DNA of 64,000 nt from Candidatus Aminicenantes bacterium (GTDB lineage: Bacteria > Acidobacteriota > Aminicenantia > JAMOAD01). The number at the start of each line of letters is the position of its first letter. Position 1 is the first letter of the stretch. The notes beneath the pieces were generated by a model. It was not told the DNA's origin, did not search any database, and was given only the letters and a program-made list of their open reading frames with translations. The DNA is taken from positions 6,750-70,749 of the forward strand of contig JAMOVU010000191.1 of the NCBI GenBank assembly GCA_027067555.1, written 5' to 3'. Below are positions 1 through 16,943 of this stretch, one piece after another. The position numbers were made by a program, and so were the translations under genes.

Positions 1-984
1 AAAGAGGTAAAAGTAAGTGTGATCAGAGACAGAGCTTTCAGTGTTTCCTCTCAGAGAATCTCTCAAACAATTTCAAGCGCTATTTCTGAAAGGCCTGTTA
101 CCCGGTTCAGATGGGGAAATAAAGAGGTTGATGTAATCTTTCAATTAAAAAAAGATAAAAACTTCACTTTAAGCAAACTAAAAAATATAACAGTGGAATC
201 CCAGTCAGGCTCATTACCTGTCTATGCTGTTGCAAGGTTCAGAATAGGAAAGGGAGCCCTTTCAATTGTAAAAGAAAACAAAAAGGCAATATTTACTGTT
301 GAAGCGAATACGGACATTCAAGGTATGTACAAAGTGAGAGATCTTGTAAAAAAAGCTATGGCAAATATAAAATTTCCTCCGGGATATAGCTGGAATATGG
401 GAGAGGATTGGAGAAGATTCAGAGAGGCACAGCAGAGCACAAATATGTCTCTTTTTTTAGGGATTTTTCTTATTTATGTTGTTATGGCATCACTTTTTGA
501 ATCATTCTCACAGCCATTTATTATTTTAATAACAGTGCCTCTTGCTCTCTTCGGAGTTGCAATAACCTTTCATCTGACAGGAGTTACCTTTGATAATGCA
601 TCCTCTTTAGGGCTTTTAATATTAATGGGAATAGTCGTAAACAATGGAATTATCCTAATTGATCACACCAATATTCTGCGAAAAAAGGGGAAAGCCCTTA
701 AAGAAGCGGTCGTTCAGGCGGGAAGGGACAGATTAAGGCCAATTCTAATGACAGCTCTTACGACAATTTTCGGACTTTTACCAATGAGTATGCCTCTGAT
801 TTTCCCCGGAGTTTTCGGACCTCCCGAGGGAAGAGCTTCAATGTGGGCGGGAATATCCCTTGTTGTTTTAGGGGGGCTTACAACCTCCACCTTCCTCACT
901 CTCACATTCCTACCATCTTTTTACTATATTTTTGAAACATGGAAGGCGAAGATATTTAAAAAAGCTGAGCAGCAGAACAGCTGA
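1..984 (+). CDS. RND efflux transporter permease (AcrB/CzcA family), C-terminal fragment; the N-terminus lies upstream of the window
   Basis: The ORF at 19..984 reads into the window start. The C-terminal transmembrane bundle of RND pumps is recognisable (FLGIFLIYVVMASLFESF...GLLILMGIVVNNGIILID, LRPILMTALTTIFGLLPM). Confidence 0.8.
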   Translation, partial: KEVKVSVIRDRAFSVSSQRISQTISSAISERPVTRFRWGNKEVDVIFQLKKDKNFTLSKLKNITVESQSGSLPVYAVARFRIGKGALSIVKENKKAIFTVEANTDIQGMYKVRDLVKKAMANIKFPPGYSWNMGEDWRRFREAQQSTNMSLFLGIFLIYVVMASLFESFSQPFIILITVPLALFGVAITFHLTGVTFDNASSLGLLILMGIVVNNGIILIDHTNILRKKGKALKEAVVQAGRDRLRPILMTALTTIFGLLPMSMPLIFPGVFGPPEGRASMWAGISLVVLGGLTTSTFLTLTFLPSFYYIFETWKAKIFKKAEQQNS

Positions 985-1085
985 ACAGCAGAGCAGCAGG
1001 AATTAAAATGAAAAATGAAGGAGTATTATGATACGAGTCGAGCAACCTCAAGAGATAAAAAAATGATAAATGAAATTGAATATAA

Positions 1086-1366
1086 AAATCATAATTTTTG
1101 TAGGGGCGGATTCCATATCCGTCCGTTTGGATTTTATATTTATATTTTCGGGCAGAAATTGATTCTGCCCCTACGGTGTTTTCAATTGGATTGTGATGTG
1201 TTGGTTTGTTTGTATGTATCTATGATTTTTCAAACCATTCGTAGGGGCGGATTCCATATCCGTCCGTTTCGGTTTTATATTTATATTTTCGGGCAGAAAT
1301 TGATTCTGCCCCTACTACGGTGTTTTTAAATGAATTGTGATGTATTGGTTTGTTTATATTAATGTA
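1086..1366. repeat. Two tandem copies of a ~145-bp REP/REPIN-like unit (GTAGGGGCGGATTC ... GATTCTGCCCCTAC inverted termini, internal hairpin GGGCAGAAATTGATTCTGCCC, conserved tail)
   Basis: The same unit recurs at 4858, 5303-5590, 10930-11165 and 14384-14489. The termini carry the GTAG/CTAC typical of REPs. The ORF at 1015..1329 is a translation artefact of this repeat. Confidence 0.85.
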
Positions 1367-1377
1367 TTTTTTTCGTT

Positions 1378-1403
1378 GTAGGGGAAATTCATGAATTACG
1401 CCA
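1378..1403. promoter_or_regulatory. Degenerate REP half-site (GTAGGGG) fused to a perfect 12-bp palindrome AATTCATGAATT, immediately 3' of the hsdR stop. It is the left member of imperfect direct repeats flanking the island.
   Basis: tAgGGGaAATTCaTGAATTaCgC here versus tAaGGGcAATTCgTGAATTgCaC at 14348..14373, about 19 of 24 identical in direct orientation. Confidence 0.4.
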
Positions 1404-1411
1404 ACGCTTGT

Positions 1412-4400
1412 TTATGCAGCCGTAAGTTTTTCAGCTATTTGCTCTGCCTGCTCAAGCACTGTTTCAGTCGCAAGTTTTTGCATATCAGGAGGATAGCCAT
1501 ACTTCCTGAGTGTTCTTTTCACTATTACCCTTAATTTTGCCTTTGCACTTTCCCTGATTGTCCAGTCTATGGAAGCATTCTCTTTAACCTTCTGAAACAA
1601 AACCACAGCCAATTCGCGTAATTTTTCCTTTCCCATTAATTCAACAGCACTCTTATTATTTGCCACTGCAGAATAAAATGCATACTCCTCTTCACTCAAG
1701 CCCATTTCCTCAGGCTCTTTATCGGCTTTTTGTATTTCTTTTGCTACATCAATAAGCTCTTCAATGAATTGAGCAGCGGTAATTATTTTATTGTGATATC
1801 TTTTGATAGCATTTTCCAGCATTTCCATTAAAGAACGACTCTGAACTATATTTTTTCTTGCTCTGCTCTTTATCTCATCATTTAATATTTTTTTCAGAAC
1901 CTCCATTGCGATATTCTTATGTTTCATATTTTTTACTTCAAGTAAAAACTCTTCGGACAAAATCTCAATATTGGGCTTTTTTATCCCGGCAGCATCAAAT
2001 ATATCCACAACCTCATCCGATACCAAAGCTTTGTCTATTACCTGTTTTATTGTTGTCTCCAAATCAACCCTTCCCTCTTTGCCCAGAAAAGATTTTGAAT
2101 CAAATTTCACAAGGCGTGATTTCACAGCCTGAAAAAAAGCCACTTCATCCTTAACCAATAGTGCTTCCTCATGAGGTATTGCAATCGCAAATGCCTTTGA
2201 TAATGCGGTCACCTCATCTATATATCTTTTTTTGCCATTCTCCAGTCCCAGAATATGTTCTTCGGCTTCCAATATTATATTCAGCTTTCTTGATGTATCG
2301 GCTTCAAAGTACTCCCTATAATTAAAGCCGAAAAACATCTGCCTTACAATCTCCAGCTTTTCGCTCATTACCATCACTGCTTCTTCCTGAGCAATGGCAG
2401 GTTTTCCTCTTCCACCGCCATCAGCATAAAAAGATAGTGCCTCTTTCAAATCCGAAGCTATTCCCAAATAATCCACAATAAGCCCGGCCGGTTTGTCCTT
2501 GTAAACTCTATTTACCCTTGCTATAGCCTGCATCAGGGTGTGGCCCCTCATCGGTTTGTCTATATACATTGTATGCAAAGATGGCACATCAAACCCTGTA
2601 AGCCACATGTCCCTTACAATCACAAGTTTTAATTCATTCTCCGGATCTTTCATTCTGTCAGCAAGTCTTCTCCTTTGCTCTTTTGTCGTATGATATTTTG
2701 CCATCTTAGGGCCATCCGAAGATGCTGCTGTCATCACAACTTTTATAAATCCTTTGTCCAAATCATCACTATGCCACTCGGGCCTGATTTTAATTATTTC
2801 CTCATACAAATCCACAGCTATCCTTCGGGACATTGCCACAATCATGCCTTTACCATCCATCACTGACAATCTTTCCTCAAAATGCAAAACTATATCCTCA
2901 GCTATTCTTTTTATCCTATCCTTACTTCCTATCAATGCTTCCAATCTGGTCCACTTTACCTTTGCTCTCTCCGTATCAGCAAGCTCCATCCTTGCAAGAT
3001 CCTCGTCCAATTCTTTTATTAATTTTTTCCCTTCCTCCGATATTCCCACCTTTGCGAGCCTGCTCTCATAATAGATAGGCACAGTCATTTTATCCTCTAC
3101 GGATTTTGAAATATCATATACATCTATATAATTCCCAAAAACAGCCGGTGTGTTCTTATCATCTTTTTCAATCGGAGTTCCGGTAAATCCTATATATGTA
3201 GCATTTGGCAGGGCATCTCTCATATACTTTGCAAAACCATACTTGATTTCACCTGTTTCCCTATCCACTTTGCCTTTGAAACCATACTGTGTTCTGTGTG
3301 CCTCATCAGCTATTACAACAATATTACTTCTATCTGATAATTTTTCATAAACATTCCCTTCCTCAGGATGAAATTTCTGAATTGTTGTGAAAACTATACC
3401 CCCTGAAGCAACTTTCAAAAGGTCTTTCAATTCTTTCCTTGTCTGCGCCTGTCTGGGCTCCTGCCTCAAAAGTTCTTTTGAAGAAACAAAGGTTTCAAAC
3501 AATTGATCATCCAGATCATTTCTATCGGTAATTACAACAATAGTCGGATTATTCAATAATTGAATAATCTTTGCAGTGTAAAAAACCATGGAGAGAGATT
3601 TTCCGCTCCCCTGAGTATGCCAGATAACACCTGCCTTTTTGTCTCCCACCGGTTGTTCAAAGGTGCTCCTTAATCCGTAAATTTCAGGATCTATTTTTAC
3701 AAAATCATATCCCCCTCTATTGATTGCACTTGCCCTTAAAGTTTCTCTTACGGCTTTGTTGACAGCATAGTACTGGTGATAAGCGGCAATCTTTTTATCC
3801 AATTTTATTGTAATTTGCTTTGTTTTTTCATCCTCTCTGGAAGATCTGTTAAATACAATAAAATACCTCAAAAAATCAATCAATGTGGTTTTATTTAACA
3901 AACCTTTAATTAGTATCTCCATTTGATTTACAAGAGGGGAGGATTCTGCAATACCATCGGAAGATTTCCATGCCATAAATCTGTCCCATCCGGCGGACAG
4001 ACTTCCAACTTTTGCATCAAGTCCATCCGATATGATAATCATTTCATTAAAAACAAATAATGAAGGAATAGTTGCTTTGTATGTTTGAATCTGCCTGAAA
4101 GCAGACATTAATGTAGCATTTTCATCCGCAGGATTTTTCAGTTCAAATACACCAATGGGGATTCCATTTATGAATAAAACTATATCAGGCCTTTTATTTA
4201 CACCATTTTCTATCACAGTGAATTGATTTACAGCAATAAATTCATTATTTTCGGGTTTTTCAAAATCAACAAGCCATACAATATCCCCCCTTTCTTCTCC
4301 ATCCTTTCTATAAACAACCTTTACCCCTTCTGTTAACAAGCGGTGAAAATTCTCATTGTTAACCAGAAGATCGGGGGAATTAGCCCTTTGCAATTGCCTT

Positions 4401-4627
4401 AATACATCATTTATGGTGTTTTCGGGTATATCAGAATTTATTCTACGAATAGATCGAATCAATACATCATAGAGTAAGACAGTATCATAAGTATTGCGTT
4501 TTTTTACAATAGTGTTTGAGACATCCGAGTCAGGAGCAATATCAGGACCGAAAACATAATCCCATCCGAGAGATTTAAGGAGTTTTATTGCAAAATTTTC
4601 GATATCGTTTTCAATTATTTTTGACAT
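1412..4627 (-). CDS. hsdR: Type I restriction enzyme R subunit (HsdR), 1071 aa
   Basis: Typical HsdR N-terminus MSKIIENDIENFAIKLLKSLGWDY, Walker A TQGSGKSLSMVF, DEAH box VIADEAHRTQ, SF2 motifs, and a C-terminal helical domain. Confidence 0.95.
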   Translation of the reverse strand: MSKIIENDIENFAIKLLKSLGWDYVFGPDIAPDSDVSNTIVKKRNTYDTVLLYDVLIRSIRRINSDIPENTINDVLRQLQRANSPDLLVNNENFHRLLTEGVKVVYRKDGEERGDIVWLVDFEKPENNEFIAVNQFTVIENGVNKRPDIVLFINGIPIGVFELKNPADENATLMSAFRQIQTYKATIPSLFVFNEMIIISDGLDAKVGSLSAGWDRFMAWKSSDGIAESSPLVNQMEILIKGLLNKTTLIDFLRYFIVFNRSSREDEKTKQITIKLDKKIAAYHQYYAVNKAVRETLRASAINRGGYDFVKIDPEIYGLRSTFEQPVGDKKAGVIWHTQGSGKSLSMVFYTAKIIQLLNNPTIVVITDRNDLDDQLFETFVSSKELLRQEPRQAQTRKELKDLLKVASGGIVFTTIQKFHPEEGNVYEKLSDRSNIVVIADEAHRTQYGFKGKVDRETGEIKYGFAKYMRDALPNATYIGFTGTPIEKDDKNTPAVFGNYIDVYDISKSVEDKMTVPIYYESRLAKVGISEEGKKLIKELDEDLARMELADTERAKVKWTRLEALIGSKDRIKRIAEDIVLHFEERLSVMDGKGMIVAMSRRIAVDLYEEIIKIRPEWHSDDLDKGFIKVVMTAASSDGPKMAKYHTTKEQRRRLADRMKDPENELKLVIVRDMWLTGFDVPSLHTMYIDKPMRGHTLMQAIARVNRVYKDKPAGLIVDYLGIASDLKEALSFYADGGGRGKPAIAQEEAVMVMSEKLEIVRQMFFGFNYREYFEADTSRKLNIILEAEEHILGLENGKKRYIDEVTALSKAFAIAIPHEEALLVKDEVAFFQAVKSRLVKFDSKSFLGKEGRVDLETTIKQVIDKALVSDEVVDIFDAAGIKKPNIEILSEEFLLEVKNMKHKNIAMEVLKKILNDEIKSRARKNIVQSRSLMEMLENAIKRYHNKIITAAQFIEELIDVAKEIQKADKEPEEMGLSEEEYAFYSAVANNKSAVELMGKEKLRELAVVLFQKVKENASIDWTIRESAKAKLRVIVKRTLRKYGYPPDMQKLATETVLEQAEQIAEKLTAA

Positions 4628-5306
4628 AGTATTTGTCTTCCTCCCATTTTAAAGGGTTGCTAATAATGTATTCTGCGATTTTCAAATAATCCTTTTCATC
4701 CCTAATAATATGTTCATAATAATTGCGCTGCCAGATTCTTTTTTTAAATGGAGGTAAAAGGTTTTGTTTTACCATTTTTATATATTCAACCGTGGTATAT
4801 CGTTTAAATGTTTGCACGATTTTGGGCAATGATACCTTCTCGATTATTTTACCTTTCGGAGGGATGGATTCCATATCCAACCGTTTTGTTTTTATATTTA
4901 TATTCCGGGCAGAAATTGATTCTGCCCCTACGGATAATTCGATAATTTCTACAATGGCATGAAAATGGTTGGGCATTATTATATATTCATGCAATCTTGC
5001 ATTTGGAAAAATTTTCGGTATTTTCAACCAAATTTTTTCTATCATCTTTCCCGCATCATTCAAAATTATTTTATTTTCAACAATTTTACCAAACAATTCA
5101 ATCCTGCCTTGTGTACATATTGTAATATAATATAAACCCGATTGCGAATAATCATAATTTTTTAATCGGATGGAATGGCGGCGGGGGAGAGGGCGATTGT
5201 GTTTTCTGGTCATGGGAATACCTCGTTTTTGATTATTCTTTGTTTTTCCAATTTTTGCATGGGTAATTTCTGAATTACCTGTATAAAACATTTTGATTTT
5301 TTCCAT
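4611..5306 (-). CDS. REP-associated tyrosine transposase (RAYT) / IS200-family Y1 HuH transposase. It carries an in-frame REPIN insertion. The true start is probably the internal Met (MTRKHN...).
   Basis: HuH motif NHFHAIVEI, SLPKIVQTFKRYTT, and the catalytic Tyr region WQRNYYEHIIRDEKDYLKIAEYIISNP. Between EI and IPPK there is a 26-aa segment (IELSVGAESISARNINIKTKRLDMES) encoded by a REPIN copy. Confidence 0.8.
   Translation of the reverse strand: MEKIKMFYTGNSEITHAKIGKTKNNQKRGIPMTRKHNRPLPRRHSIRLKNYDYSQSGLYYITICTQGRIELFGKIVENKIILNDAGKMIEKIWLKIPKIFPNARLHEYIIMPNHFHAIVEIIELSVGAESISARNINIKTKRLDMESIPPKGKIIEKVSLPKIVQTFKRYTTVEYIKMVKQNLLPPFKKRIWQRNYYEHIIRDEKDYLKIAEYIISNPLKWEEDKYYVKNN
4858..4930. repeat. 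REPIN copy inserted inside the RAYT coding sequence (in-frame, ~26 codons)
   Basis: gGAGGGatGGATTCCATATCC...GGGCAGAAATTGATTCTGCCCCTAC matches the island repeat. The left arm is degenerate. Confidence 0.75.
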
Positions 5307-5590
5307 GATTTTTCAAACCATTCGTAGGGGCGGATTCCATATCCGACCGTTTGGGTTCCATGTTCACATTTTCGGGCAGAAATGGATTCTGCCCCTACGG
5401 TGTTTTTAAATGGATTGTGATGGGATGGTTTGTTTGTATGTAACCATGATTTTTCAAACCATTCGTAGGGGCGGATTCCATATCCGCCCATTTGGGTTTT
5501 ATATTTATATTTTAGGGCAGAAATGGATTCTGCCCCTACGGGGTTTTTAAATAAATTGTGATGTGTTGGTTTGTTTGTTTTGTTGTTATG
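5303..5590. repeat. Two tandem REPIN-like units (leader, REPIN, tail) between the RAYT and the helicase gene
   Basis: GTAGGGGCGGATTCCATATCCG...GGGCAGAAATGGATTCTGCCCCTACGG occurs twice with the conserved tail GTTTTTAAAT.GATTGTGATG.GWTGGTTTGTTTGT. The ORF at 5210..5734 is a translation artefact (VGAESISA.K...GYGIRPYEWFEKSW occurs twice). Confidence 0.85.
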
Positions 5591-5730
5591 ACAGGGTAAT
5601 TTCTTATAATTGGGTGGTTTGGGAATTGCCCTTATGGATTGGGCATTTATTATTCTTAAAAGATAAATTTTATCAATTATATTGAAATTAAAACCGTCAT
5701 TATAATATACAAACATAAAATCAAAAACTT

Positions 5731-7932
5731 TCACAAATTCCCCTTTATCTTCTCAATTTCGTATTTTAAAAAAAGATGCGGTCTTTTATTTATCAAGCTA
5801 ATAACTTCTTTTATTAATTTTTCATCATTACTTATTTCTTCTAAATTAATTTCATTTTTTATTTTTTCTATTGCTGATTTTGGAATGCCATATTCTAATA
5901 ATACAGATAATTTTTCAGGAACAAAATCATTTTCTAATAATGTTGCATAATAAGCATAGTCTCCTGCTTCCAAATTTTTCTTTTCACAAACAAATTTTTG
6001 AATATTATTGACGACATTTAACCATTTGGGAACCTTAAATTGAAACCAATGTCTGAAAATATTAAAAACATCTCTTATAGCTTCATTAAACAACTCATTG
6101 TCATTATATTTTGAGAAATAATTTTTTTCTTTATAGTATGTATAATTTGATTTTATTAAAAAAAGAATATCCTTATTAACAGTATAATCAAAAGTTACTT
6201 TTATTAGACGTTTTTTAGTCATGGGTCTAGTAGTTTCTCCTGATCTAAGTAAATTATCCCATGATAATTCTATCAAATAGCTTAGCTGTTGATAGTTTGG
6301 TATCCCATTCCAAGTTATTAAATTTTGTTTTCTCTTAATATCTTTATATAACTGTTCCAAAATCCTTTTCTGTCCCCAAACAGAAACACCGTTTTTCCTG
6401 AATAACTCTCTTTCGTCGTCAGTTAACTCACTCAATTTTTTATATTGCTCAGTATTTTTTACGATATCTTTTACATCATTTTTATGTAATGTTATTAATA
6501 CTTCATCTTCAATAGGTTTTTGCTGATAAAAAGGTATATCGATAATTAATTTTTCTTTTTTAGGTGGCGGGTTAAAATTATATATTTTCCCAATATAGTG
6601 GATCATAAAACGTCCAGCTCTGCCTTTAATATTAGAGTAATCAAAAAAATCAATAGATTTTCTATTCCCTTTGGTGTTATCAAAAAAAACGATATTTTTG
6701 GCGCTTGTATTTACACCTTCAATTAAAGTAGTAGTACAGAATAAATATTTTAGTCTTCCTTCATTAAAATAATCTACAATTGAAGAATTAATATGTTTAA
6801 TTAGTGCACCATCATTTATGCCAATACTATATTCTAAAATTTCTATTAGATTCCAATTAGTATGTACATTTTCTTTTATCCATTCAATTAATGGCAACTC
6901 ATGATCTATCTTCTTTTCTACTTCATTATTTTTTAAATAATTACAAAACTTCCATGCCAAATCTCTTACTTTTTTAGGAGAAGAACAATAAATAATAAAT
7001 TGTTCTTTTTCAGTATTCAATAACTCAAATAACACATGTTCTTTATATTGTTTCTTTTCCCCACGACTACCAAACTTTTTTTTATGTTCCAAATAGACAT
7101 CTATTATTTTTGATTCAACTAATTTGTAATCAGTTTTGTAAAATACAGCATTGTATTTTTGTGCAAAACCTTCAGAAATCCCATCTATATTTGGACCTAA
7201 TAAATAAAATTTTGGATTGTACTTTTTTAGTAATTTGTAAAATGCATTATTTAAAATATAGGCTCGCTCATCATCTCGTTTTTGGCTTAATTTATAGAAC
7301 TCATCTATAATAAGAAAATCTATTGGTGGTAAATTGGGATATTCCATTACTCGTTCCGCAGTTAATAAAAACAAATTACCTTTATCAGTAGCAGGTTCTT
7401 GTGTTGTTTTGACAATAATTTTATATCTTTCCTTGTATCTTTTTAGTTTTTTTCTAGTCTCATCCAACAAAGCTAAAGTTGGTTGTATTACCACTATATT
7501 CTTATATTTTCCGCTTGCAACAATCTCTTCGATTAATAAACTTTTGCCAAAGCTTGTAGGAGCACTAACTATTAAATTTTTATCACTTTCCAAAATATAT
7601 TTGAGTATTTTTTGCTCTTCATGAAGATAGATATTCTCTAAATTTTCTGATAAATGAAACTCCTTTCTTATTTTTCCATCTATTGTAGATGGTTCACCTC
7701 TTTCTTTTTTTAAATATGGATAAAAACCTGCCATTTCTACTATGTCAAACCAAATATCCTTAGTATGTTCAGGGATTTTTTTGAAGTTCTCTAAAATATA
7801 AATGAGTAATCTGTGACCTAAGTTTTCATTATTTCGTAATTCATTAGCACAAATTTTGGCATAGCTAAAACTTTCATCAACAGATATCGAATCTTTGCTC
7901 TCTATATTTTTTATTATCGCTTCTATATTCAT
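5731..7932 (-). CDS. SF2 (DExH-type) helicase, 733 aa. HamB-like partner of the upstream nuclease-like protein (candidate Hachiman effector).
   Basis: Motif I-like LIVSAPTSFGKSLL, motif II FLIIDEFYKL, motif V-like FCTTTLIEGVN and motif VI IKGRAGRF. There are long N- and C-terminal extensions. The start overlaps the stop of the 338-aa ORF at 7932/7933. Confidence 0.6.
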   Translation of the reverse strand: MNIEAIIKNIESKDSISVDESFSYAKICANELRNNENLGHRLLIYILENFKKIPEHTKDIWFDIVEMAGFYPYLKKERGEPSTIDGKIRKEFHLSENLENIYLHEEQKILKYILESDKNLIVSAPTSFGKSLLIEEIVASGKYKNIVVIQPTLALLDETRKKLKRYKERYKIIVKTTQEPATDKGNLFLLTAERVMEYPNLPPIDFLIIDEFYKLSQKRDDERAYILNNAFYKLLKKYNPKFYLLGPNIDGISEGFAQKYNAVFYKTDYKLVESKIIDVYLEHKKKFGSRGEKKQYKEHVLFELLNTEKEQFIIYCSSPKKVRDLAWKFCNYLKNNEVEKKIDHELPLIEWIKENVHTNWNLIEILEYSIGINDGALIKHINSSIVDYFNEGRLKYLFCTTTLIEGVNTSAKNIVFFDNTKGNRKSIDFFDYSNIKGRAGRFMIHYIGKIYNFNPPPKKEKLIIDIPFYQQKPIEDEVLITLHKNDVKDIVKNTEQYKKLSELTDDERELFRKNGVSVWGQKRILEQLYKDIKRKQNLITWNGIPNYQQLSYLIELSWDNLLRSGETTRPMTKKRLIKVTFDYTVNKDILFLIKSNYTYYKEKNYFSKYNDNELFNEAIRDVFNIFRHWFQFKVPKWLNVVNNIQKFVCEKKNLEAGDYAYYATLLENDFVPEKLSVLLEYGIPKSAIEKIKNEINLEEISNDEKLIKEVISLINKRPHLFLKYEIEKIKGNL

Positions 7933-8949
7933 TTATATCCCTTGAATCTTTGAAAGTTTCCTATGCAATTCTTTCACTAATTCGCTTTTATTAGGAACGG
8001 GGAAAAGCATTACAATAACATTTAAATCAGAATGAATAGGTTCTCCTGAATTTTTATATTTCTTTTGTAACTCTTTAAACTTATTATAGAATATTTCTTT
8101 AAGATACCTTATTTCTCTTTCATATTCTCTAATAAATTCTTCATTTTCATCATTTGTATGGTTTGAAAAGACTTCAGATGTATATGTACACAACAGAGGT
8201 ATTGTTACAGATGAAAACAAATCTTGTAATTTACCATTTTGATTTGCAACTCTGTCCAATTCATCAAACCAATATTCTTTTTGTCTTAAAAATTCTTCAT
8301 ACTGATCTTTTGTATTTAAGTCGATATACTCTTCAAGTTTCAAAAAAGCGTTTTTTTTCTTCCCAATTAGCATAAACTCTCTTTTTAAGAAATCTTTTGT
8401 AAAATGTTCTTCAATATCATTTAATAACGCTTCTACCCCTTTTTTACCGTCTTTATATAACTTAGATTCACCAAGATAAATTGAACTACAGTCAGATTTC
8501 CTTAAATTAGGTCCAATATGAATTGCATCAAAACCATGCACTGTTATACCATCAGAATCCTTAAAGTATATTTTTGATACCAAAGGAACTGTATTAATAA
8601 AATCTCGCAAGATAAGATGTAATATCAATTCACCAAACTCACCTCGTTTTAGATATTTTTCCTGAATATCATCTTCGTACTCACCATTATTTTCTAAATA
8701 TGTTTTTTTTGATTGTTTAAAAACCTCTATTTTATATAGAGATTGAGCCGCCTCTTTTAATATTTTTCTTGTATAAGTCTGTTTTATACCCTCATGAAAT
8801 CCAAAAACAAAATCCACTAAAACATCCATCAATATATTTAATAAATCATCAAGTCTATATTTACCAAAATCGAAACCAACAAAATACGCTCTAAGATCTG
8901 CTTCTGATATATGCTCGGTAATAACTTCTTCAGAACCAAAAACACTCAT
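7933..8949 (-). CDS. PD-(D/E)xK nuclease-like protein, 338 aa (HamA/DUF1837-like candidate)
   Basis: GEFGELILHLIL (helix Glu) ... HGFDAIHIG ... 17 aa ... IYLGESKLY gives the D...ExK geometry. The ORF is wedged between hsdS (4-nt overlap at 8946..8949) and the helicase, so translational coupling is likely. Confidence 0.5.
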   Translation of the reverse strand: MSVFGSEEVITEHISEADLRAYFVGFDFGKYRLDDLLNILMDVLVDFVFGFHEGIKQTYTRKILKEAAQSLYKIEVFKQSKKTYLENNGEYEDDIQEKYLKRGEFGELILHLILRDFINTVPLVSKIYFKDSDGITVHGFDAIHIGPNLRKSDCSSIYLGESKLYKDGKKGVEALLNDIEEHFTKDFLKREFMLIGKKKNAFLKLEEYIDLNTKDQYEEFLRQKEYWFDELDRVANQNGKLQDLFSSVTIPLLCTYTSEVFSNHTNDENEEFIREYEREIRYLKEIFYNKFKELQKKYKNSGEPIHSDLNVIVMLFPVPNKSELVKELHRKLSKIQGI

Positions 8950-10124
8950 ACCTTCACCCTCACCTCCCCACTCATTAATTTTGGCAATAATGTGTCGCGT
9001 AGTTTTTCTAATGTGTGGATTTGTTGTTCGTTGCTTCTGATTTTGTCTAAAAATTTTTTTACTACTGTATGAAAATACAAGGACTTCTTTTCATTAAATG
9101 AAAAGGAGAGTTCAAAAATATCTCGTGCTTTGACTCTTTGATGACTTCCACTGGTTCCGCTTGCTGCGCCAATTAACTCATTAGTTACTTGAATAGATTT
9201 TAACAAATAATAAATAAAGCTAAAGTATTCTTTCTTCTTTGGAAAAACAACTATAAATTCTGTTGAACAAACAGAGTACTCTTTATTTTCAATTTTACCC
9301 CATATTGCCCAAACTCTTGGAAGTCTTGGATTTAATTTTGAGATCAATATTGAATGCTCAAAAACTTTATATTTATTACTTTTTATTTCCATTCCCAATT
9401 CCTTTATTGGTTTTTTCCCTGCGTCAAAAGCTGGAATACTAAAATGCAAGAATTCTATCTCCGGATCTTTGTTAGGCACAATATTTACTTTTTTATGTTC
9501 TGCAATCTCAAATAGCTGCTTCTCCTCCCAATCCTCCTCCGCCTCTTCTATAAACCATTTTCTAAATAGAGTTTCTGCCATGGCTTCTAATGTTTTGTTT
9601 TGGCGGTGGAGGAGATCTATTTTGTCATCAAGGGAGGAGAGGACAGAGGCAATGGCGCGTTGTTCGTCAATTGATTCTGGGATTATCCATTCTGTTTTTT
9701 TCATAAAATTCCATTCGGCTCTTGGCATTCTAGTTCCTGATGCTCCTTTTGTTGCTAAGTCTATAAATTCGTAAGTTGCAAATAAGTAAAACAAAAAATT
9801 TTTATCCGTATTTTCTTTGGGTGCAACTACCCAAATATCAGTAGAACAAATCCCTTTAAACTTAGGATTGTACAATTTCCTAAAATATGGTCTTAATTTA
9901 CCAAATAAAAACTCTTCTTCAGTGAAAATATATTTATTACTTTTAATATCATCCGAAAAACCAATAGTTTTTAATCTTAAAGAAGATTCCTCTATGTGTT
10001 CTAAACCTATATACGGTAATTTTTCATTACCAACTTTCCACGCTCTCTTTAATACCTGTGCTATTTCTTCTAATTTTACTTTTTTCCAACCTTTTAGCAT
10101 TCTTTCATCCATTCTCTGCACCAC
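8946..10124 (-). CDS. hsdS: Type I restriction-modification specificity subunit (HsdS), 392 aa, with two target-recognition domains
   Basis: Conserved central and C-terminal coiled-coil repeats LDDKIDLLHRQNKTLEAMAETLFRKWF and LDKIRSNEQQIHTLEKLRDTLLPKLMSGEVRV. Confidence 0.9.
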   Translation of the reverse strand: MVQRMDERMLKGWKKVKLEEIAQVLKRAWKVGNEKLPYIGLEHIEESSLRLKTIGFSDDIKSNKYIFTEEEFLFGKLRPYFRKLYNPKFKGICSTDIWVVAPKENTDKNFLFYLFATYEFIDLATKGASGTRMPRAEWNFMKKTEWIIPESIDEQRAIASVLSSLDDKIDLLHRQNKTLEAMAETLFRKWFIEEAEEDWEEKQLFEIAEHKKVNIVPNKDPEIEFLHFSIPAFDAGKKPIKELGMEIKSNKYKVFEHSILISKLNPRLPRVWAIWGKIENKEYSVCSTEFIVVFPKKKEYFSFIYYLLKSIQVTNELIGAASGTSGSHQRVKARDIFELSFSFNEKKSLYFHTVVKKFLDKIRSNEQQIHTLEKLRDTLLPKLMSGEVRVKV

Positions 10125-10917
10125 TTTTTATTTCCTCAACATAAGATTTTAGCCATTCGTATTTTTGTTTGACTTTCTCATCTGTACTATTTATATTTTT
10201 TTCAACTATCTCTTCTACTTCCCCTATTATTCGTTCGTAATTACTTTTACTTTCTCTGTTCCATACTATAGAAAATCTTTTATTTTCATTTATTATATTT
10301 TCTCCAATTTTACGTAACACTTTCCTATTCAATAAATCAAGAAAATAGATCCCATCCTTATCTTTTTTGATTCCATTAATAAGAAAACCATCATTTTGTT
10401 TTTCAAGAAAAGGAGATCCTTTTATGTTTTTGTTTTTAATGTATTCAACTAATTTTTCGTCAACTACAATCCTCGGATAAATAGCAATTTCGGATTCAAG
10501 TTTGTAAGCTTCTACCAAGCCAGGACCAATCAAAACATTTTCTTCTTTTTTCGGAAAATACATTTTACCTACTGTTATTGCTCCTCTGAAACAAAATCCC
10601 TTTTCCCAAAATCTATCCTGCAAATATCTGACAATCAAAAAAAGATGAGGTAAATTACGCGGCTCTTTTTTCATTATAAACGCGAAACTATCCGAAAAAT
10701 AAAAACTTCTTATATCCAAATTTCCATCTTTTGATGTTTCTTTGCTTGTAGATTTCGTAATCTTTGAATTGATTTTAATTACCTTAATTATATCTTCTAA
10801 TAACTTTTTATTTTCCCCATTTTCTATCTCTTTTAATAAATTTTTAACCCCCAAAACATCCAAATAGCATATAAAACAATCTTCTAAATTATATTCGCTC
10901 ATTTTAATTTCTCCCAT
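10105..10917 (-). CDS. Hypothetical protein of 270 aa with a class III nucleotidyl-cyclase-like palm-domain signature (possible signalling nucleotide cyclase; uncertain)
   Basis: ICYLDVLGVKNL resembles FADIVGFT. FYFSDSFAFI resembles IGDAYMAVF. FRGAITVGKMYF resembles RIGIHTGPVV. GPGLVEAYKLESE resembles GDTVNLAARLES, but the transition-state Asn/Arg are absent. The ORF overlaps the hsdS start by 20 nt. Confidence 0.35.
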   Translation of the reverse strand: MGEIKMSEYNLEDCFICYLDVLGVKNLLKEIENGENKKLLEDIIKVIKINSKITKSTSKETSKDGNLDIRSFYFSDSFAFIMKKEPRNLPHLFLIVRYLQDRFWEKGFCFRGAITVGKMYFPKKEENVLIGPGLVEAYKLESEIAIYPRIVVDEKLVEYIKNKNIKGSPFLEKQNDGFLINGIKKDKDGIYFLDLLNRKVLRKIGENIINENKRFSIVWNRESKSNYERIIGEVEEIVEKNINSTDEKVKQKYEWLKSYVEEIKSGAENG

Positions 10918-10929
10918 GTTTTGGTTTTT

Positions 10930-11165
10930 TGTTTATTTTATTTTTATATTTTCGGGCAGAAATTGATTCTGCCCCTACGGGGTTTTTAAATAAATTGTGA
11001 TGGGATGGTTTGTTTGTATGTAACCATGATTTTTTAAACCATTCGTAGGGACGGATTCCATATCCGCCCGTTTGGGTTTCATGTTCATATTTTCGGGCAG
11101 AAATAGATTCTGCCCCTACGGTATTTTCAATTGGATTGTGATGGGATGGTTTGTTTGTATCATTA
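10930..11165. repeat. About 1.5 REPIN-like units (a right-half partial copy followed by a full copy) between the cyclase-like gene and the AlbA_2 gene
   Basis: TTTTCGGGCAGAAATTGATTCTGCCCCTACGG, then the tail, then GTAGGGACGGATTCCATATCCGCCCG...CTGCCCCTACGG. The ORF at 10904..11179 is a repeat artefact. Confidence 0.85.
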
Positions 11166-11175
11166 ATTGTTTTAA

Positions 11176-12771
11176 TCATTTTTTATTTTTAACCATTTTT
11201 TCTTCTTTAATCAAAACATAAAATGCCAAACCGCGTTTAGTTAACTTGAATTTTTGTTTCGGACTGTTCAAATTATCTTTAATTGTATGCTCTATTAACT
11301 TAAAGTTATGTAGTTTTTTCAATATTTTATTTAACCCTCCGGAAATAGATTTTTGCCCCAATTCCAAAGAAATTTCTTTACGTGATTTAGGAGAATTCAA
11401 TAATATAAACAATATGCGCAAGAAAAGAGACTCTTGCTCTATCTCTTGCCTCAACTCTTGCCTCAACTCTTGCCTCAACTCTTGCTTTTCATTCTCAAGC
11501 CCGGCTTTTAGCCATCGGATAATTTCCTCGGAAAAAATTATAGATGAAGGGAATAGTTGTCCGTAATCATCTCTGGTTTTTTGTTTTTGGTCCGTAATCG
11601 TTCGTGATTGGGCATAATCGGTTTTTATGAATGTTACTCTGAATGAAAATCCGGGCTCGCTCCATTCCATCTTTATTTCCGGATATTTTTTTAATTCTTT
11701 GGAAATCAGTTTAAGCCCGTTTCCCCATTGCTCTATGATACCGAGCTTTTTAAAAACAGGTGCCAATACCTTATTTCTTATATCTGATTGACCTGATTCC
11801 ATATCATCAAAATCAATGGTAGGCATAAGCTTCCCGGGGCTTGTGATCTCTATTTTATCGTCAAATATGGCAATTTTAATATCTTTGCCTTTTAAAGAAT
11901 AATCTCTGTGAATCACTGCATTTCGTATGAGTTCACGGATTGCTACTACAGGATACTCCCACCTGTCTTTTCTGTAAACTCCCTCATATGAGGAGCCCTG
12001 AGAGATGTGCCTCAAAACAAATTTATAAGCCTCTTCCGCCTGAAAGCTCAACGGAGTTTCTATTGTTTTTTGATCTATGAATTCTCCGGGAATTTTTCCC
12101 TTGAATCTTGCACACTCTATTTTTGCATAAGGAAAAAGTCTTTTCCTGATTTCATCATTTGAAAGTAATACAAGGGCATTTGTGGGAAAATCCCTGTTCT
12201 GATCTGTGATAATCAAGTTCAGTTTTCTTAAAATTGTTTTGGTAAGCTTCTCTCCGGTGATTTCCTCAAATTGATTTCTAAATTGAGAGATGGTTAATTC
12301 ATTCGCTTCTTTTAAATGCACAAGAATAGAATCAAAGGAAATGTTTTGTTTCTGTCTTTCTAACTCTTCAATCATATCTTTGTCCGCAAGGCGGTTTGTT
12401 GAGCCGACTCGGATATAAGTTCCTTTCCATTTTCCCTTGTTTTTCAAATAATAGGGAGGATTGCTTCCTTTGTAAATTCTAACTTTTATAATATGTTTAC
12501 CTTGATAATTTACAAAAGAAATATCGGGCAGTACTATCGGATAGCAATTATCATGAATGATGTTGCTTATTTTTTCTTCCATTGAAATCAACTTTTCCTC
12601 GGAAATTCCTATGATTTTTCTTGGTTCATTTTTTATTCCTATGAAAATCTCACCTCCCGCATCATTAGCAAAAGCAACAACAGTTTTACATAAATCATTT
12701 TTTAAAGGAAGTGTTTCTTTAAATTCAAGCTTTCTTCCTTCTGGCTGTTTTAATAATTCTTCAATTTTCAT
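11176..12771 (-). CDS. AlbA_2 (Schlafen-like) plus HATPase_c_4 ATP-binding protein with a C-terminal wHTH. This is the family often annotated as a RecG-like transcriptional regulator in Type I R-M loci. 531 aa.
   Basis: [11 protein letters not shown]...[19 protein letters not shown] (AlbA_2), [14 protein letters not shown] (HATPase_c_4), and a C-terminal HTH-like segment. It contains (ELRQ)x3 encoded by a 15-bp tandem repeat at about 11440-11490. Confidence 0.75.
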
Positions 12772-14344
12772 TATCTTTTTCCGAATCAGATAAATCTATC
12801 TTTTCAAGATTTTCAAGAATCAATTTGTTTAATCTCTCTTCTTCCTTTAATTGTTCAAGAAATTCTGCCTTTAATTTTGAAAACCTTTCTTCAAAGTCAA
12901 AATCATCATCTTCTTCCGGAAGTCCGACATAACGACCCGGAGTGAGCACATAATCAAGCTCTCTTACCTCTTCTATTTTTACGGATTTGCAAAATCCCTT
13001 TACATCCTCATAGCTTTCATCTCCCCTCTGCCAATTGTGATAAGTATCAGCAATCTTTCTTATATCCTCCTCCGTTAATACACGGGTCCTTCTGTTTATA
13101 AGAGTACCCATATCTCTTGCATCTATGAAGAGAATCTCCCCTTTCCTATTTTTTTTGTTTCTGTTTAAAAACCATAAAGAGGCAGGTATCTGAGTGTTTA
13201 AAAATAGTTTTGTCGGAAGATTGACAATGCATTCGACAAGATCATTTTCAATAATATTCTTTCTTATCTCATATTCTCCTTTGCTTTTTGTGGTTAATGC
13301 TCCTTTTGCAAGAACAAAGCCAGCTCTTCCATTCGGATTCAGGTGATAGATAAAGTGTTGTATCCATGCGTAATTCGCATTTCCCACAGGGGGGACTCCG
13401 TATTTCCATCTGCCATCACTTCTGAGCAATTCTCCGCTCCAATCACTGTCATTGAAAGGAGGATTTGCTATTACAAAATCAGCTTTCAGATCTTTGTGAG
13501 CATCATTCAAAAAAGAGCCCTCAGGATTCCATTTTACCTGAGTTGAGTCAATCTGTCTTATCGCAAGGTTCATTTTACAGAGACGCCATGTAGTCTGATT
13601 ACTCTCCTGTCCGTATATTGATATGTCATCCACTTTTCCCTGATGCTCTTTTACAAATTTTTCGGATTGAACAAACATTCCGCCGGAACCGCAGCATGGG
13701 TCAAACACTCTTCCTCTGTAAGGTTCAAGCATCTCAACAAGTAGTTCAACAACACTTCGAGGAGTGTAAAATTGCCCCCCTTTTCTTCCCTCGGCAAGAG
13801 CAAATTGCCCTAAAAAATACTCGAAAACATGCCCCAAAATATCTGCACTTCTCTTTGTAGCCTCTCCCAGTGCAATATTACCTATCAAATCAATCAAACC
13901 GCCTAAAGACAGAGGATCCAGATTCCCCTTTGCATACACCTTTGGCAAAACACCTTTTAATGATGGATTTTCCTTTTCTATTATATCCATTGCATTATCC
14001 AATATCTTTCCTATTTCCGGATTTTTTGCATTATTAAGAAGGTATGACCATCTTGCTTCGGGTGGGACATAAAAAATATTTTTAGCCCTGTATTCATCTA
14101 TATCTTCGGGATCCGCCCCTTCTTCCACTTTGCTTTTTAGTTTTTCATACAGGTCTTCAAAAGCGTCTGAGATATACCGCAAAAATATTAAACCCAATAC
14201 CACATGTTTGTATTCAGCAGCATCAATATTTTTTCTTAGTTTATCCGCAGCTTTCCACAACTGTTTTTCAAGATTTTCCTCTTTTTCTTTTTTATTCATA
14301 TTGCCCTCTTTTTTTATTTTATCTTTTTTATTTGTGATTGGCAA
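12761..14344 (-). CDS. hsdM: Type I R-M N6-adenine DNA methyltransferase subunit (HsdM). The ORF begins at a TTG; the ATG ([15 protein letters not shown]) 15 codons in is the likelier start.
   Basis: HsdM N-domain [38 protein letters not shown] motif [11 protein letters not shown], and catalytic VIANPPFN. Confidence 0.93.
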
Positions 14345-14353
14345 GAATTAAGG

Positions 14354-14369
14354 GCAATTCGTGAATTGC
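14354..14369. promoter_or_regulatory. Perfect 16-bp palindrome GCAATTC-GT-GAATTGC sitting 10 nt 5' of the annotated TTG start of hsdM, and about 50 nt 5' of the likelier ATG. It is a candidate operator and the right member of the island-flanking repeats.
   Basis: The 7-bp inverted repeat was read directly from the sequence. It lies between an AT-rich -10-like TATTAT and the hsdM start. Its core AATTCRTGAATT is shared with the site at 1386..1397. Confidence 0.4.
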
Positions 14370-14383
14370 ACGCATAATAATTT

Positions 14384-14489
14384 TTGATGTTTTCCATGAT
14401 TTTTTAAACCCTTTGTAGGGGCGGATTCTGTATCCGACCGTTTGGATTTTATGTTCATATTTTCGGGCAGAAATGGATTCTGCCCCTAC
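14384..14489. repeat. Single REPIN-like unit at the right edge of the island
   Basis: Leader CCATGATTTTTTAAACCCTTT, then GTAGGGGCGGATTCTGTATCCGACCG...GGGCAGAAATGGATTCTGCCCCTAC. Confidence 0.85.
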
Positions 14490-14974
14490 ATTGTTTTATC
14501 GAACTCTTTTTTTAATTTTTCAAAGGTTTTTTCTATACCTTCAAACATAACCTTTGTTTCTCCGAATAAGGGCATAAAATTGGCATCCCCTTCCCATCGG
14601 GGAACTATGTGAAGATGAAAGTGATCGGGAACACCGGCACCTGCAGGTCTTCCAAGATTCATTCCAATGTTAAAACCCTGAGGATGATAAACATTTTCAA
14701 GAATCTCAAGGGCTTTTAACATTAAGGTGTTCATCTCATCTATTGTTTCTTTCTTTGCCTTTAAAGGAGAGTCAAGATGCTCATAGGGAGCAATTAAAAG
14801 ATGACCATTATTGTAAGGATAAAGGTTTAAAATTATAAAAGAGTGTTTGCCTTTGAAAAGAATGTATCTTTCTTCGGGTTTTTTATGTTTTGAAGCTTCA
14901 CATAAAAAACATTCCTCGTTATCAAGCCCCTCTTTTATATACTTCTCTCTCCAGGGGGTTACAAGATATTTCAT
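14486..14974 (-). CDS. HIT-superfamily protein (GalT/Ap4A-phosphorylase-like branch), 162 aa
   Basis: The histidine triad HFHLHIVPR is near the C-terminus, and there is an N-terminal CxxC. Confidence 0.7.
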   Translation of the reverse strand: MKYLVTPWREKYIKEGLDNEECFLCEASKHKKPEERYILFKGKHSFIILNLYPYNNGHLLIAPYEHLDSPLKAKKETIDEMNTLMLKALEILENVYHPQGFNIGMNLGRPAGAGVPDHFHLHIVPRWEGDANFMPLFGETKVMFEGIEKTFEKLKKEFDKTM

Positions 14975-14980
14975 TGTATC

Positions 14981-15220
14981 TCACTTATTTAAGGCTCTTA
15001 GAATGACATCCGAGGTTTTGTAGTTTACTCTGACAAAGTACTTTCCGTTTGCTTTGAATATTTTCGGGGTAAAAACTCCTAAACCTCTCAGCTCTATTCT
15101 ATTGCCTTCTCTTAAAAAATTCGTAAAAATACTGAAAAAGAGGTCAACATATTTTTTGGTATCATCATAGGTGTATCCGAGTTCTCTTCTAATCTGATCA
15201 ATAAGAGACTTTTTAGTCAT
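14981..15220 (-). CDS. HU/IHF-family DNA-binding protein, 79 aa
   Basis: MTKKSLIDQIRRELG...RIELRGLGVF has the same length and pattern as the HU/IHF fold. Confidence 0.65.
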   Translation of the reverse strand: MTKKSLIDQIRRELGYTYDDTKKYVDLFFSIFTNFLREGNRIELRGLGVFTPKIFKANGKYFVRVNYKTSDVILRALNK

Positions 15221-16943
15221 TCTTTTTGTTCATAATCTCTTTTTTGATAAGATCCCCTATTGTTGTCTTTTGATCAGTGGTTCCCACTTTTCTTAATTGC
15301 TCCATTTCCTTCTTCATCTTCTCTCTTAAAGCCTTTTTATAGCTTAGTATGATTTTTCTGTTTTCCCTATCTATAATCTTGATATAAGCTTCCTTTTCTT
15401 CGCCTACGGAAAGAACTTCTGAAATATCTTCTATTTTTTTTGTTGAAATCTCTCCCTTTCTGATAATGCCCTCAAGACCACCGTCAAGCTCTACTACAAC
15501 AAAGTTTTCCAGAATTTTTTTAACCTTGGTGTTAATAAGGTCACCCTCTTTATACCTGGAGAAAAATTCCGCCCATTTATCACCTTCAAGCTGTTTCACC
15601 CCTAATAAAATTCTTCCGCTATCTTCTTCTATAGAAAGTATAAGAGCTTTTATGACATCTCCTTCTTTGACAACTTCCGAAGGATGCTCAACATAGCCCC
15701 ATCCAAGATCACCCTTTCTTATAAAGCCATCAACATCAGGCATTATATTGACTATAATTCCGCTATCAGCAAGTTTTTTAACTTTTACTTCAACAATATC
15801 ACCTTCTTTGTATGTTGAAAGGAATTTCTCCCATGGAGAAGGCTCAAGCTGTTTTATTCCTATGTAAATTAATCTTTTCTCAGGTATTATATCCAAAACT
15901 TTTCCAATAACCCTATCCTCTATTTCAAAGACAAAATCAAGGGATTTTATCTTTTTGCCCCAGTAAACATCTTCTCCTCTTAACCTTGCATTAACCCCCT
16001 CTTCAAGCTCAACAAGAGCATAGCCCTGTTTAAAACCTATGACTCTTCCCTTTATCTTTGTTCCAATTTTGTACTTTTTGGGAGCGGTAATCCAGGGATC
16101 TTCCTGAAAAGCCTTATAACTTAAAATTATTCTCTCTCTGCTTTTATCCACCTCTAAAACTTTGAACTTATAAGTCTTTCCTATTTTTAATTTTTTTCTT
16201 ATATCGGGAAGATAGCCCCAGGATATCTCACTTTTGGGAACAAAGGCTGTAAGAGATGATTTAAGCTCAACCAGAGCTCCTGCCTTTTTTATTTTTGTGA
16301 CAGTAGCTTCCACCTCATCTCCCACTTTTAAAGAGGAAAAAAGTTTGTCTTTTTCTCTTTTTAAATCCTCCAGAAGAAGAGCTTTTCTTGAGACAACTCC
16401 GCTTTTATTTTTTTCATCAATTCTTATTATTTTAAATCTGAATTCTTTTCCCAAAATCTCATCGGGATTTGAAACAGGTCTTATATCTGCTTGGGAATCA
16501 GGTAAAAAGAGTTCCACCCCCGCATCCACGATATAACCTCTCTTAATTTTTCTTACAACAGGAGCCAGAAGAGGCTCATTATTCTTAAAGTATCTCTCAA
16601 CTTTCTCCCAACCTAAAATTTCATCAGCTTCTTTTTTTGAAAGTACGATTTCCCTTGATGAAATCTTTTTTACCACTGCTTTTATAAAACTTCCCTCTGA
16701 AAAGGGAATTTCTCCTTTATAATTAACGCACTCTTCTATTGGAATGAAGCCTTCCTGCTTATAACCGATATCCACTATTACATCGCTTTGACCAATTTTA
16801 ATAACTTTACCTTCAACCATTTCATTTTTTTTCAGCTGTTTTAATTCATACTGTTCAATCAAATCTTCCATTTTCTCCATCTTCTTCTCCTCATCCTTAA
16901 TTTTGTCTTCTTTTAATTCTCCCATTTGTATCCTTCCCTCCAC
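15213..16943 (-). CDS. rpsA: 30S ribosomal protein S1 (multiple S1 domains)
   Basis: Repeated S1 motifs GxVxxIxxxGxxVDIG...GFIP. The arrangement is ispH-rpsA adjacent and overlapping. Confidence 0.9.
   Translation of the reverse strand: MEGRIQMGELKEDKIKDEEKKMEKMEDLIEQYELKQLKKNEMVEGKVIKIGQSDVIVDIGYKQEGFIPIEECVNYKGEIPFSEGSFIKAVVKKISSREIVLSKKEADEILGWEKVERYFKNNEPLLAPVVRKIKRGYIVDAGVELFLPDSQADIRPVSNPDEILGKEFRFKIIRIDEKNKSGVVSRKALLLEDLKREKDKLFSSLKVGDEVEATVTKIKKAGALVELKSSLTAFVPKSEISWGYLPDIRKKLKIGKTYKFKVLEVDKSRERIILSYKAFQEDPWITAPKKYKIGTKIKGRVIGFKQGYALVELEEGVNARLRGEDVYWGKKIKSLDFVFEIEDRVIGKVLDIIPEKRLIYIGIKQLEPSPWEKFLSTYKEGDIVEVKVKKLADSGIIVNIMPDVDGFIRKGDLGWGYVEHPSEVVKEGDVIKALILSIEEDSGRILLGVKQLEGDKWAEFFSRYKEGDLINTKVKKILENFVVVELDGGLEGIIRKGEISTKKIEDISEVLSVGEEKEAYIKIIDRENRKIILSYKKALREKMKKEMEQLRKVGTTDQKTTIGDLIKKEIMNKKND

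Follow-up and report, generated by a model that had tools for sequence, protein, structure and literature searches.

A subclass 2.4 RAYT gene of a Candidatus Aminicenantes bacterium carries an in-frame copy of its local REPIN

A stretch of 64,000 nucleotides (nt) from a Candidatus Aminicenantes bacterium (GenBank assembly GCA_027067555.1, contig JAMOVU010000191.1, positions 6,750 to 70,749 of the forward strand; hereafter the window) contains a domesticated transposase gene, that of a REP-associated tyrosine transposase (RAYT, also TnpA_REP), where REP denotes a repetitive extragenic palindrome. Inside this gene, in frame, lies a copy of the local family of REPINs, elements composed of two inverted REP hairpins. 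Judged from its sequence, the gene encodes an intact HUH/Y1 RAYT of subclass 2.4, which corresponds to Group 4 in the RAYT scheme of Bertels et al. One loop of these proteins is probably a tolerated landing pad, long occupied by REP DNA of the enzyme's own kind, with the resident copy kept similar to the dispersed population by re-insertion or conversion. The phenomenon itself was published in 2018, when REP sequences inserted inside tnpA_REP genes were described as a unique feature of subclass 2.4 (PMC6006769).

The REPIN inside the RAYT gene

The in-gene REPIN (Table 1) runs from V95 to the second base of P119, corresponding to about 25 codons, preserves the reading frame and is positioned between H85 and Y182. 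A previous reading of the DNA, made from sequence only, had quoted the encoded peptide exactly and had identified the extra segment as an in-frame copy of the local REPIN; the start that it gave, 4858, is correct, the end is at 4931 rather than 4930, and its count of 26 extra codons is approximate.

The element is alignable end to end with the six full extragenic REPINs of the window at 81-88% identity. The extragenic copies are 89-97% identical among themselves, making the in-gene copy the most diverged member of the family and, therefore, not a fresh one. Its two arms differ in preservation. The gene-proximal REP is identical to the extragenic copies at 1150, 1291 and 10954 in 25 of 25 bases and folds as single-stranded DNA (ssDNA) with -8.6 kcal/mol (z -4.7), while the gene-distal arm reaches -4.2 kcal/mol (z -1.0) and encodes its peptide where homologs have ADMESAPT. 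Intact REPIN arms yield -8.6 and -6.5 kcal/mol, with z values of -5.5 and -2.8, respectively. The in-gene spacer, TTTTATATTTATAT, nearly matches the extragenic spacers of the window, being 1 nt shorter, and differs from the spacers that the closest homologs, at loci L003 and L007, have at this position. The near-identity of this spacer to the local extragenic spacers indicates shared ancestry within this lineage.

Identity and predicted structure of the RAYT

The open reading frame (ORF) at 4611-5306 of the minus strand comprises 231 amino acids (aa) without interruption; the sequence-only reading had allowed that a re-check might reveal stop codons, and none is present. The likely start is the ATG at 5213 (M32 of the ORF), which yields 200 aa and is the start chosen by gene callers on two independent metagenome contigs. 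Database protein P0001, identical to the RAYT, also begins there, and a GAGG lies 7 nt 5' of this ATG; the upstream extension at 5214-5306 is probably not translated. The identical protein is found in one database cluster and on two read contigs. No second RAYT copy was noticed in the window, of which a systematic ORF screen covered the first 16 kb.

The assignment to the RAYT family, proposed in the sequence-only reading, is supported by sequence and by fold. The protein matches Pfam Y1_Tnp with E = 4e-5 and 24.1 bits against a threshold of 23 bits; weak scores are common across the subfamily, and a precomputed Pfam match is missing for many homologs. The sole sequence match in the PDB is the E. 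coli TnpA_REP, 4ER8, which is also the top Foldseek match of the RAYT model (E = 2e-6), followed by the TnpA proteins of IS608, ISDra2 and IS200.

Motifs were examined in an alignment of 40 sequences, consisting of P0001 and 39 homologs, including those of Deferribacter, Chlorobium, Algoriphagus, Thiotrichales, Cytophagales and many metagenomic sequences. The HUH motif, N82-H83-F84-H85, fits NH[IFV]H, and its columns are invariant. W161-Q162 constitutes the WQ motif of subclass 2.4 and opens the segment WQRNYYEH, which aligns to W94-H101 of 4ER8, with R171, just downstream, aligning to R104. The residues of 4ER8 that recognize GTAG are W94, Q95, W99, E100, H101 and R104, and W161, Q162, E167, H168 and R171 of the RAYT align to W94, Q95, E100, H101 and R104. 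Y182, within YIISNP, aligns to Y115 of 4ER8, which we take to be the catalytic tyrosine, so that Y182 is presumed to serve this role in the RAYT. The sequence-only reading had placed the catalytic tyrosine at WQRNYYEH and called the region intact; the region is intact, its location being corrected here, as WQRNYYEH is the recognition region and the tyrosine is Y182. The motif Y182-I-I-S-N-P corresponds to YIxNNP with one substitution, S185 for N, and Y182, N186 and P187 are invariant. All invariant columns of the alignment are kept in the RAYT, including H83, H85, W161, E167, Y182, N186 and P187. A RAYT is defined functionally by binding and cleavage of its cognate REP ssDNA at the GTAG foot, and the residues for catalysis and recognition are conserved here.

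The AlphaFold2 model, computed with the 40-sequence alignment as input, has a predicted template modelling score of 0.73. The core is well predicted, with a predicted local distance difference test score (pLDDT) mostly above 90 and block means of 86-98. Residues 95-123, situated between the HUH strand (83-90) and the helix at 129-149, exhibit pLDDT values below 50 and lack secondary structure. This pattern is in line with one of the two possibilities raised in the sequence-only reading, that the transposase tolerates a loop insertion of its own substrate. That reading had also taken a HUH motif followed directly by PPK as canonical. In IS200 TnpA the HUH motif is indeed followed almost directly by the PPK helix cap (Pfam Y1_Tnp consensus); the RAYTs of this subclass are built differently.

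Occupancy of the loop among homologs

REP-derived sequence, at least partial, occupies the same loop in 39 of 39 aligned homologs from several phyla. The sequence-only reading had considered that homologs might carry a segment of similar length unrelated to the repeat; a segment is present in the homologs, and it is related to the repeat. The loop consensus reads VGA[D/E]SISA...RA[D/E]M[E/D]SAPT, with lineage variants such as VGATLVVA...GQPQGIAPT and VGADLCVC...GRHAGLPL. These peptides are translations of GTAGGGGC-hairpin and hairpin-GCCCCTAC, the initial GTAGGGGC being read as V-G-A and the terminal GCCCCTAC as A-P-T or P-L.

A survey of 78 loci, obtained from an 80-locus scan of one genome per species together with look-ups, detected a REP with foot and hairpin in the loop at 58 loci. 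The motif GT[AG]GGG reaches a density of 7.06 per kb in the loops, compared with 0.20 per kb in the remaining parts of those genes. REP feet lie in codon phase 0, encoding V-G, in 54 of 62 cases, phase 1 being likewise free of stops, and the first foot is mostly found 5-12 codons past the HUH hexapeptide. REPs are present both within the gene and outside it at 42 loci; at 30 of these, a local extragenic REP matches the in-gene one with 90% identity or more, whereas the cross-locus control gave such matches in 91 of 1722 pairs (5%). Among homologs, 49 to 130 residues separate the MPNHxH motif from the conserved W. Proteins P0034 and P0058 contain an additional REP in a different loop, demonstrating that new in-frame insertions do occur.

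Two observations on individual loci are added. The RAYT gene at L006 (10001-10825, protein P0085) has a loop with three REPs and a long tandem array encoding THATHATSTHTAH-type repeats, and the REPs flanking this gene are of another sequence type than those inside it. At the locus level, the best named relative is a metagenome-assembled genome of candidate division TA06, with 60% identity.

Extragenic REPINs of the window

A 24-nt REP probe from the neighbouring repeat matches the window 8 times, whereas 100 dinucleotide shuffles yield no match. Six full extragenic REPINs of 75 nt each start at 1100, 1241, 5324, 5465, 11045 and 14415, all within 14 kb; the seven full REPINs of the window measure 74-75 nt, share 81-97% pairwise identity and have arms that are 81-85% complementary. 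Each comprises two non-identical REP hairpins in inverted orientation with a spacer of about 25 nt between them, the first arm being GTAG+GGGCGGAT-TCCAT-ATCCGCCC and the second GTAG+GGGCAGAA-TCNAT-TTCTGCCC. The majority of copies reside in tandem doublets of a 141-nt unit. The REPs at 5374-5398, 5465-5489 and 5515-5539 are located 160-330 nt upstream of the RAYT start, within the 1000 nt that serve as the criterion for subclass 2.4.

All 8-9 REP copies of the 64 kb fall between 1100 and 14489, in the gaps of one operon or just outside it, and share one orientation relative to operon transcription; the remaining ~50 kb of the window contain none. The REPINs bracket three blocks, [hsdM+SLFN], [270-aa ORF+hsdS+HamAB] and [RAYT+hsdR]. 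An Rfam search of positions 1-16000, with E up to 1, returned no structured RNA match. A 174-aa ORF at 5210-5734 of the minus strand reads through both REPINs upstream of the RAYT gene (…VGAESISA…GGYGIRPY…). A gene was called for it on contig L001; as an ORF made up of repeat sequence, it is almost certainly spurious.

The REP type GTAGGGGC[AG]GA[AT]TCNAT[AT]TC[CT]GCCC is common in metagenome contigs (L091-L170), including human-gut assemblies. In a metagenome scan with GTAGGGGCRGAWTCNATWTCYGCCC, 94 of the matches listed (at least 120) lie on 80 analysed stretches, and 92 of these 94 have no RAYT on the stretch. The matches listed thus give no support to the idea that this REP persists solely through its in-gene copy.

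Operon context

The RAYT gene belongs to an operon on the minus strand (window 1412-14344) with the order hsdM, SLFN/AlbA_2 gene, 270-aa ORF, hsdS, HamA, HamB, RAYT, hsdR (Table 1). A Hachiman system (HamA, HamB) is nested inside a Type I restriction-modification (R-M) operon. The RAYT itself matches no catalogued defence protein in PADLOC. The 17-nt overlap between the RAYT and hsdR genes, noted in the sequence-only reading, is correct. The SLFN/AlbA_2 gene contains a 12-nt tandem repeat, ACTCTTGCCTCA, in 4.7 copies at 11430-11485.

Table 1. Coordinates of the features described, in the window unless a locus is named
Feature	Positions	Strand	Description
RAYT (TnpA_REP) gene, subclass 2.4	4611-5213	-	200 aa; gene calls, Pfam, 4ER8, retained invariant residues
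In-gene REPIN	4858-4931	-	74 nt; translated V95-P119 (VGAESISARNINIKTKRLDMESIPP)
Gene-proximal REP	4907-4931	-	GTAG foot, 8-bp stem, 5-nt loop, intact; encodes VGAESISA
Gene-distal REP arm, decayed	4858-4883	+	GGAG foot in place of GTAG, weakened stem; encodes LDMESIPP
Upstream in-frame ORF extension	5214-5306	-	overlaps flank of 141-nt repeat unit; D1 unit begins 5292
Two tandem 141-nt units	5303-5578		one REPIN each (5324-5398, 5465-5539); directly upstream of RAYT
Two tandem 141-nt units	1100-1359		REPINs 1100-1174, 1241-1315; just downstream of hsdR
Lone REP and full REPIN	10954-11119		REP 10954-10978, REPIN 11045-11119; between SLFN/AlbA_2 gene and 270-aa ORF
Full REPIN	14415-14489		between HIT-family gene and hsdM start
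hsdR, Type I restriction subunit	1412-4627	-	ORF, Pfam; start overlaps RAYT stop by 17 nt
HamB	5731-7932	-	PADLOC, E = 2e-234
HamA	7933-8949	-	PADLOC
hsdS	8946-10124	-	
270-aa ORF	10105-10917	-	no family
SLFN/AlbA_2+HATPase_c_4 gene	11176-12771	-	
hsdM	12761-14344	-	
RAYT-hsdR locus, L003	10001-13784		
RAYT-hsdR locus, L007	263-2996		
RAYT-hsdR locus, L087	8001-11808		
RAYT-hsdR locus, L023	3799-7659		
RAYT-hsdR locus, L059	10001-13725		
RAYT-hsdR locus, L062	216-2871		
Double-foot REP in hsdR, L003	11256-11283		peptide VGAIHELPLQ
Double-foot REP in hsdR, L023	5095-5122		peptide VGAKNLLPLQ
Double-foot REP in hsdR, L023	5335-5362		peptide VGANDYLPLR

The position directly upstream of hsdR recurs. 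Among 67 loci with at least 1.5 kb of downstream sequence, 7 have an hsdR on the RAYT strand whose start falls at -16 to +91 nt relative to the RAYT stop, these being the window, L003, L007, L087, L023, L059 and L062, and in L060, L082 and L005 the RAYT is found elsewhere in a Type I operon, giving 7-10 of 67 loci from several phyla; the loci were picked by similarity to the RAYT of the window, which may inflate this frequency. In L003, L007 and L087, the junction between RAYT and hsdR is conserved. In a rough neighbour-joining tree of RAYT cores (185 columns, no support values), the R-M-linked RAYTs are spread over several RAYT lineages and do not form one tight clade. The HsdR of L023 is 66% identical to that of the window, its RAYT 43%, and the locus has another REP, of the double-foot kind. 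The hsdR genes of L003 and L023 themselves contain in-frame double-foot REPs (GTAGGGGC...GCCCCTAC, 28 nt) in codon phase 0; at the first of these sites, the HsdR of the window reads GIAESSPLV. The hsdR of L003 may be a pseudogene, its frame being stopped at codon 822.

A link between RAYTs and Type I R-M is not mentioned in the text of Quentin et al. 2018 or in the searchable literature, whose coverage of subscription journals is thin, making this silence weak evidence; the words 'restriction' and 'hsd' are absent from the searched text of PMC6006769. Confinement of REPINs to the gaps of one defence operon was likewise not found described in the searchable literature. That the RAYT/REP module is a working part of Type I R-M and defence operons, and not a passenger, appears unlikely, and two routes to such a role are conceivable. 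REP hairpins in the operon gaps, together with the phase-locked hairpin within the RAYT ORF, taken as translationally coupled to hsdR, could set the expression of HsdR relative to HsdM and HsdS; alternatively, the HUH nuclease itself could contribute to defence. In a related reading, the in-gene REPIN may be ancestral and kept by concerted evolution, which would ensure joint inheritance or transfer of the enzyme with a copy of its substrate.

Relation to known systems

Subclass 2.4 of TnpA_REP was defined by Quentin, Siguier, Chandler and Fichant (2018, BMC Genomics 19:475; PMC6006769) and equals Group 4 in the RAYT classification of Bertels et al. 2017 (PMC5581495). It is characterized by the motifs NH[IFV]H, WQ and YIxNNP, a length of ~194 aa and a variable insertion between beta3 and alphaC, while its REPs, which flank the gene, are long, start with a GT[AG]G foot and carry three G-C pairs at the base of the stem (PMC6006769). 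The RAYT of the window agrees with this description in motifs, length, variable insertion, flanking long REPs, in-gene REP and patchy phylum distribution, and nothing essential differs, the Y motif being YIISNP, with S for N. A codon-phase bias of REP feet was not found described in PMC6006769. RAYTs in general occur as a single copy per genome, are inherited vertically and are not found on plasmids (Bertels et al. 2017, PMC5581495).

The E. coli RAYT (4ER8; Messing et al. 2012, PMC3479197), a member of subclass 2.2, shares the HUH/Y1 fold, the recognition residues, Y-I-x-x-N-P and flanking REPs. In contrast, its beta3-alphaC loop is short, it has neither an in-gene REP nor the N-terminal RLxxYDYS extension, and identity over the fold alignment is 19%. 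REPINs as described by Bertels and Rainey (2011, PMC3116915) likewise consist of two inverted REP hairpins with a short spacer, in multiple copies around a single RAYT. Those of the window differ in having non-identical arms (GGGCGGAT... and GGGCAGAA...), in their 141-nt tandem doublets, in their restriction to one 13-kb operon and in the copy within the RAYT ORF. REP singles and dimers situated in frame in genes, encoding 20-30 amino acids and often hosted by DNA-metabolism genes, are reported by Di Nocera et al. (2013, PMC3733652); in the parts of that survey available here, host genes are treated generally and the RAYT is not singled out as a regular target. TnpA of the IS200/IS605 family (IS608, PDB 2A6M and 2VJV) has the same HUH/Y1 fold and acts on ssDNA hairpins. 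It differs in being multi-copy and in residing within an insertion sequence (IS) bounded by left-end and right-end hairpins, often with tnpB. The RAYT of the window is not of that family, being embedded in an hsd operon and overlapping hsdR, with no tnpB and with repeats that are REPINs rather than IS ends.

Origin and maintenance of the in-gene REPIN

The interpretation of the loop as a landing pad is carried by the anatomy of the in-gene element, its conservation, the phase bias of the feet, the match between in-gene and extragenic REPs and the predicted disorder of the loop. In this account, the loop of subclass 2.4 between the HUH strand (beta3) and helix alphaC would accept REP or REPIN DNA of the enzyme's own kind, and the inserted palindromes would be translated as a disordered surface loop, presumably harmless, leaving intact the HUH and Tyr residues of catalysis as well as those that recognize GTAG. 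Occupancy would be old and widespread. The tracking of each genome's REP family by its in-gene REP points to repeated re-insertion at the same site or to gene conversion from extragenic copies, that is, to concerted evolution as the probable mechanism. The resident copy of the window, related to the local REPINs within its lineage, would later have decayed by mutation of the foot and shortening of the spacer. Several points weigh against this interpretation. No REP hairpin is detectable in the loop at 20 of 78 homolog loci, the foot survey of 74 loci includes 11 without even the 6-nt foot motif, and short unoccupied loops exist in, for example, L078 (49 residues from the HUH motif to the conserved W) and L086; empty loops therefore occur, and the feature falls short of universality. 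At 12 of 42 loci, such as L006, the in-gene REP is unlike the REPs of the sampled flanks. The strong phase bias is better explained by a single ancestral insertion than by free re-insertion, and both the translation of the loop and the activity of the enzyme remain predictions.

The other possibility raised in the sequence-only reading, a very recent event in which the RAYT placed its own REPIN into its own gene, by chance in frame, would explain the local type of the spacer, so different from that in L003 and L007, and the perfectly matching proximal REP. It is nevertheless very unlikely and is disfavoured here, as occupancy of this loop is shared by essentially all close homologs, including L003, L007 and L087, which have the same hsdS-RAYT-hsdR synteny and REPs at the same site, and the copy itself is the most diverged of its family, with a mutated distal foot and a weakened stem. 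A selected cis-element, whether a master copy that seeds or re-seeds the REPIN population or a set of hairpins regulating the RAYT and the coupled hsdR, would account for the phase-locked feet in their narrow position and for the compensatory changes that keep both hairpin and peptide (GGGCAGAA/TTCTGCCC to GGGCGGAT/ATCCGCCC, VGAESISA to VGADSISA). Some loci, such as L005, keep an in-gene REPIN without an extragenic copy within 10 kb on either side, and at four loci the end of the RAYT gene overlaps the beginning of hsdR. However, the in-gene copy of the window has a decayed arm and is no pristine master, the REP type is dispersed away from RAYTs, and a quarter of the surveyed loops (20/78) have no hairpin; with any regulatory role being putative, this alternative is considered distinctly improbable.

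Two further explanations deserve hardly any credence. The RAYT could be a decaying pseudogene whose frame is open through the repeat by accident, as its marginal Pfam score and low-complexity loop might suggest; yet the frame is open over the full length, the AlphaFold2 core is confident and low Pfam scores are typical of the whole subfamily, and this explanation is rejected because every invariant residue is retained. Equally remote is the reverse direction of transfer, from gene to intergenic space, in which the extragenic 141-nt units would be duplicated fragments of the RAYT gene and thus ordinary coding sequence. By eye, the unit flanks seem to hold an AACCAT..CAT remnant of the HUH codons, and when the 20 nt to the left of the foot are compared in an anchored alignment, the signal is marginal (p 0.013-0.10 in five copies, 0.63 in the sixth). 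Against this, local alignment of unit flanks with gene flanks performs no better than shuffles (all p at least 0.17), the right flank gives no signal in the anchored comparison, the shared element has REP anatomy, with a GTAG foot and G+C-based hairpins, and the same REP is dispersed over many metagenome contigs without a RAYT. The candidate reading of the 141-nt unit as a RAYT fragment with a HUH remnant was rejected on the shuffle tests of the flanks. The landing-pad interpretation is accordingly preferred over all of these.

Significance

The RAYT gene of the window is one more example of the phenomenon published in 2018 and requires no new concept. The survey quantifies that phenomenon: occupancy of the loop is the rule, the feet are phase-locked, and the resident REP matches the REP family of the host, which points to concerted evolution between the gene-internal copy and the dispersed population. 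The numbers for R-M linkage, phase-locking and concerted evolution are offered as leads and not as results. Among them, the repeated occurrence of subclass 2.4 RAYTs immediately upstream of hsdR, across several lineages and phyla, offers a concrete lead, and a further one is that the REPINs of the window are confined to the gaps of a single defence operon.

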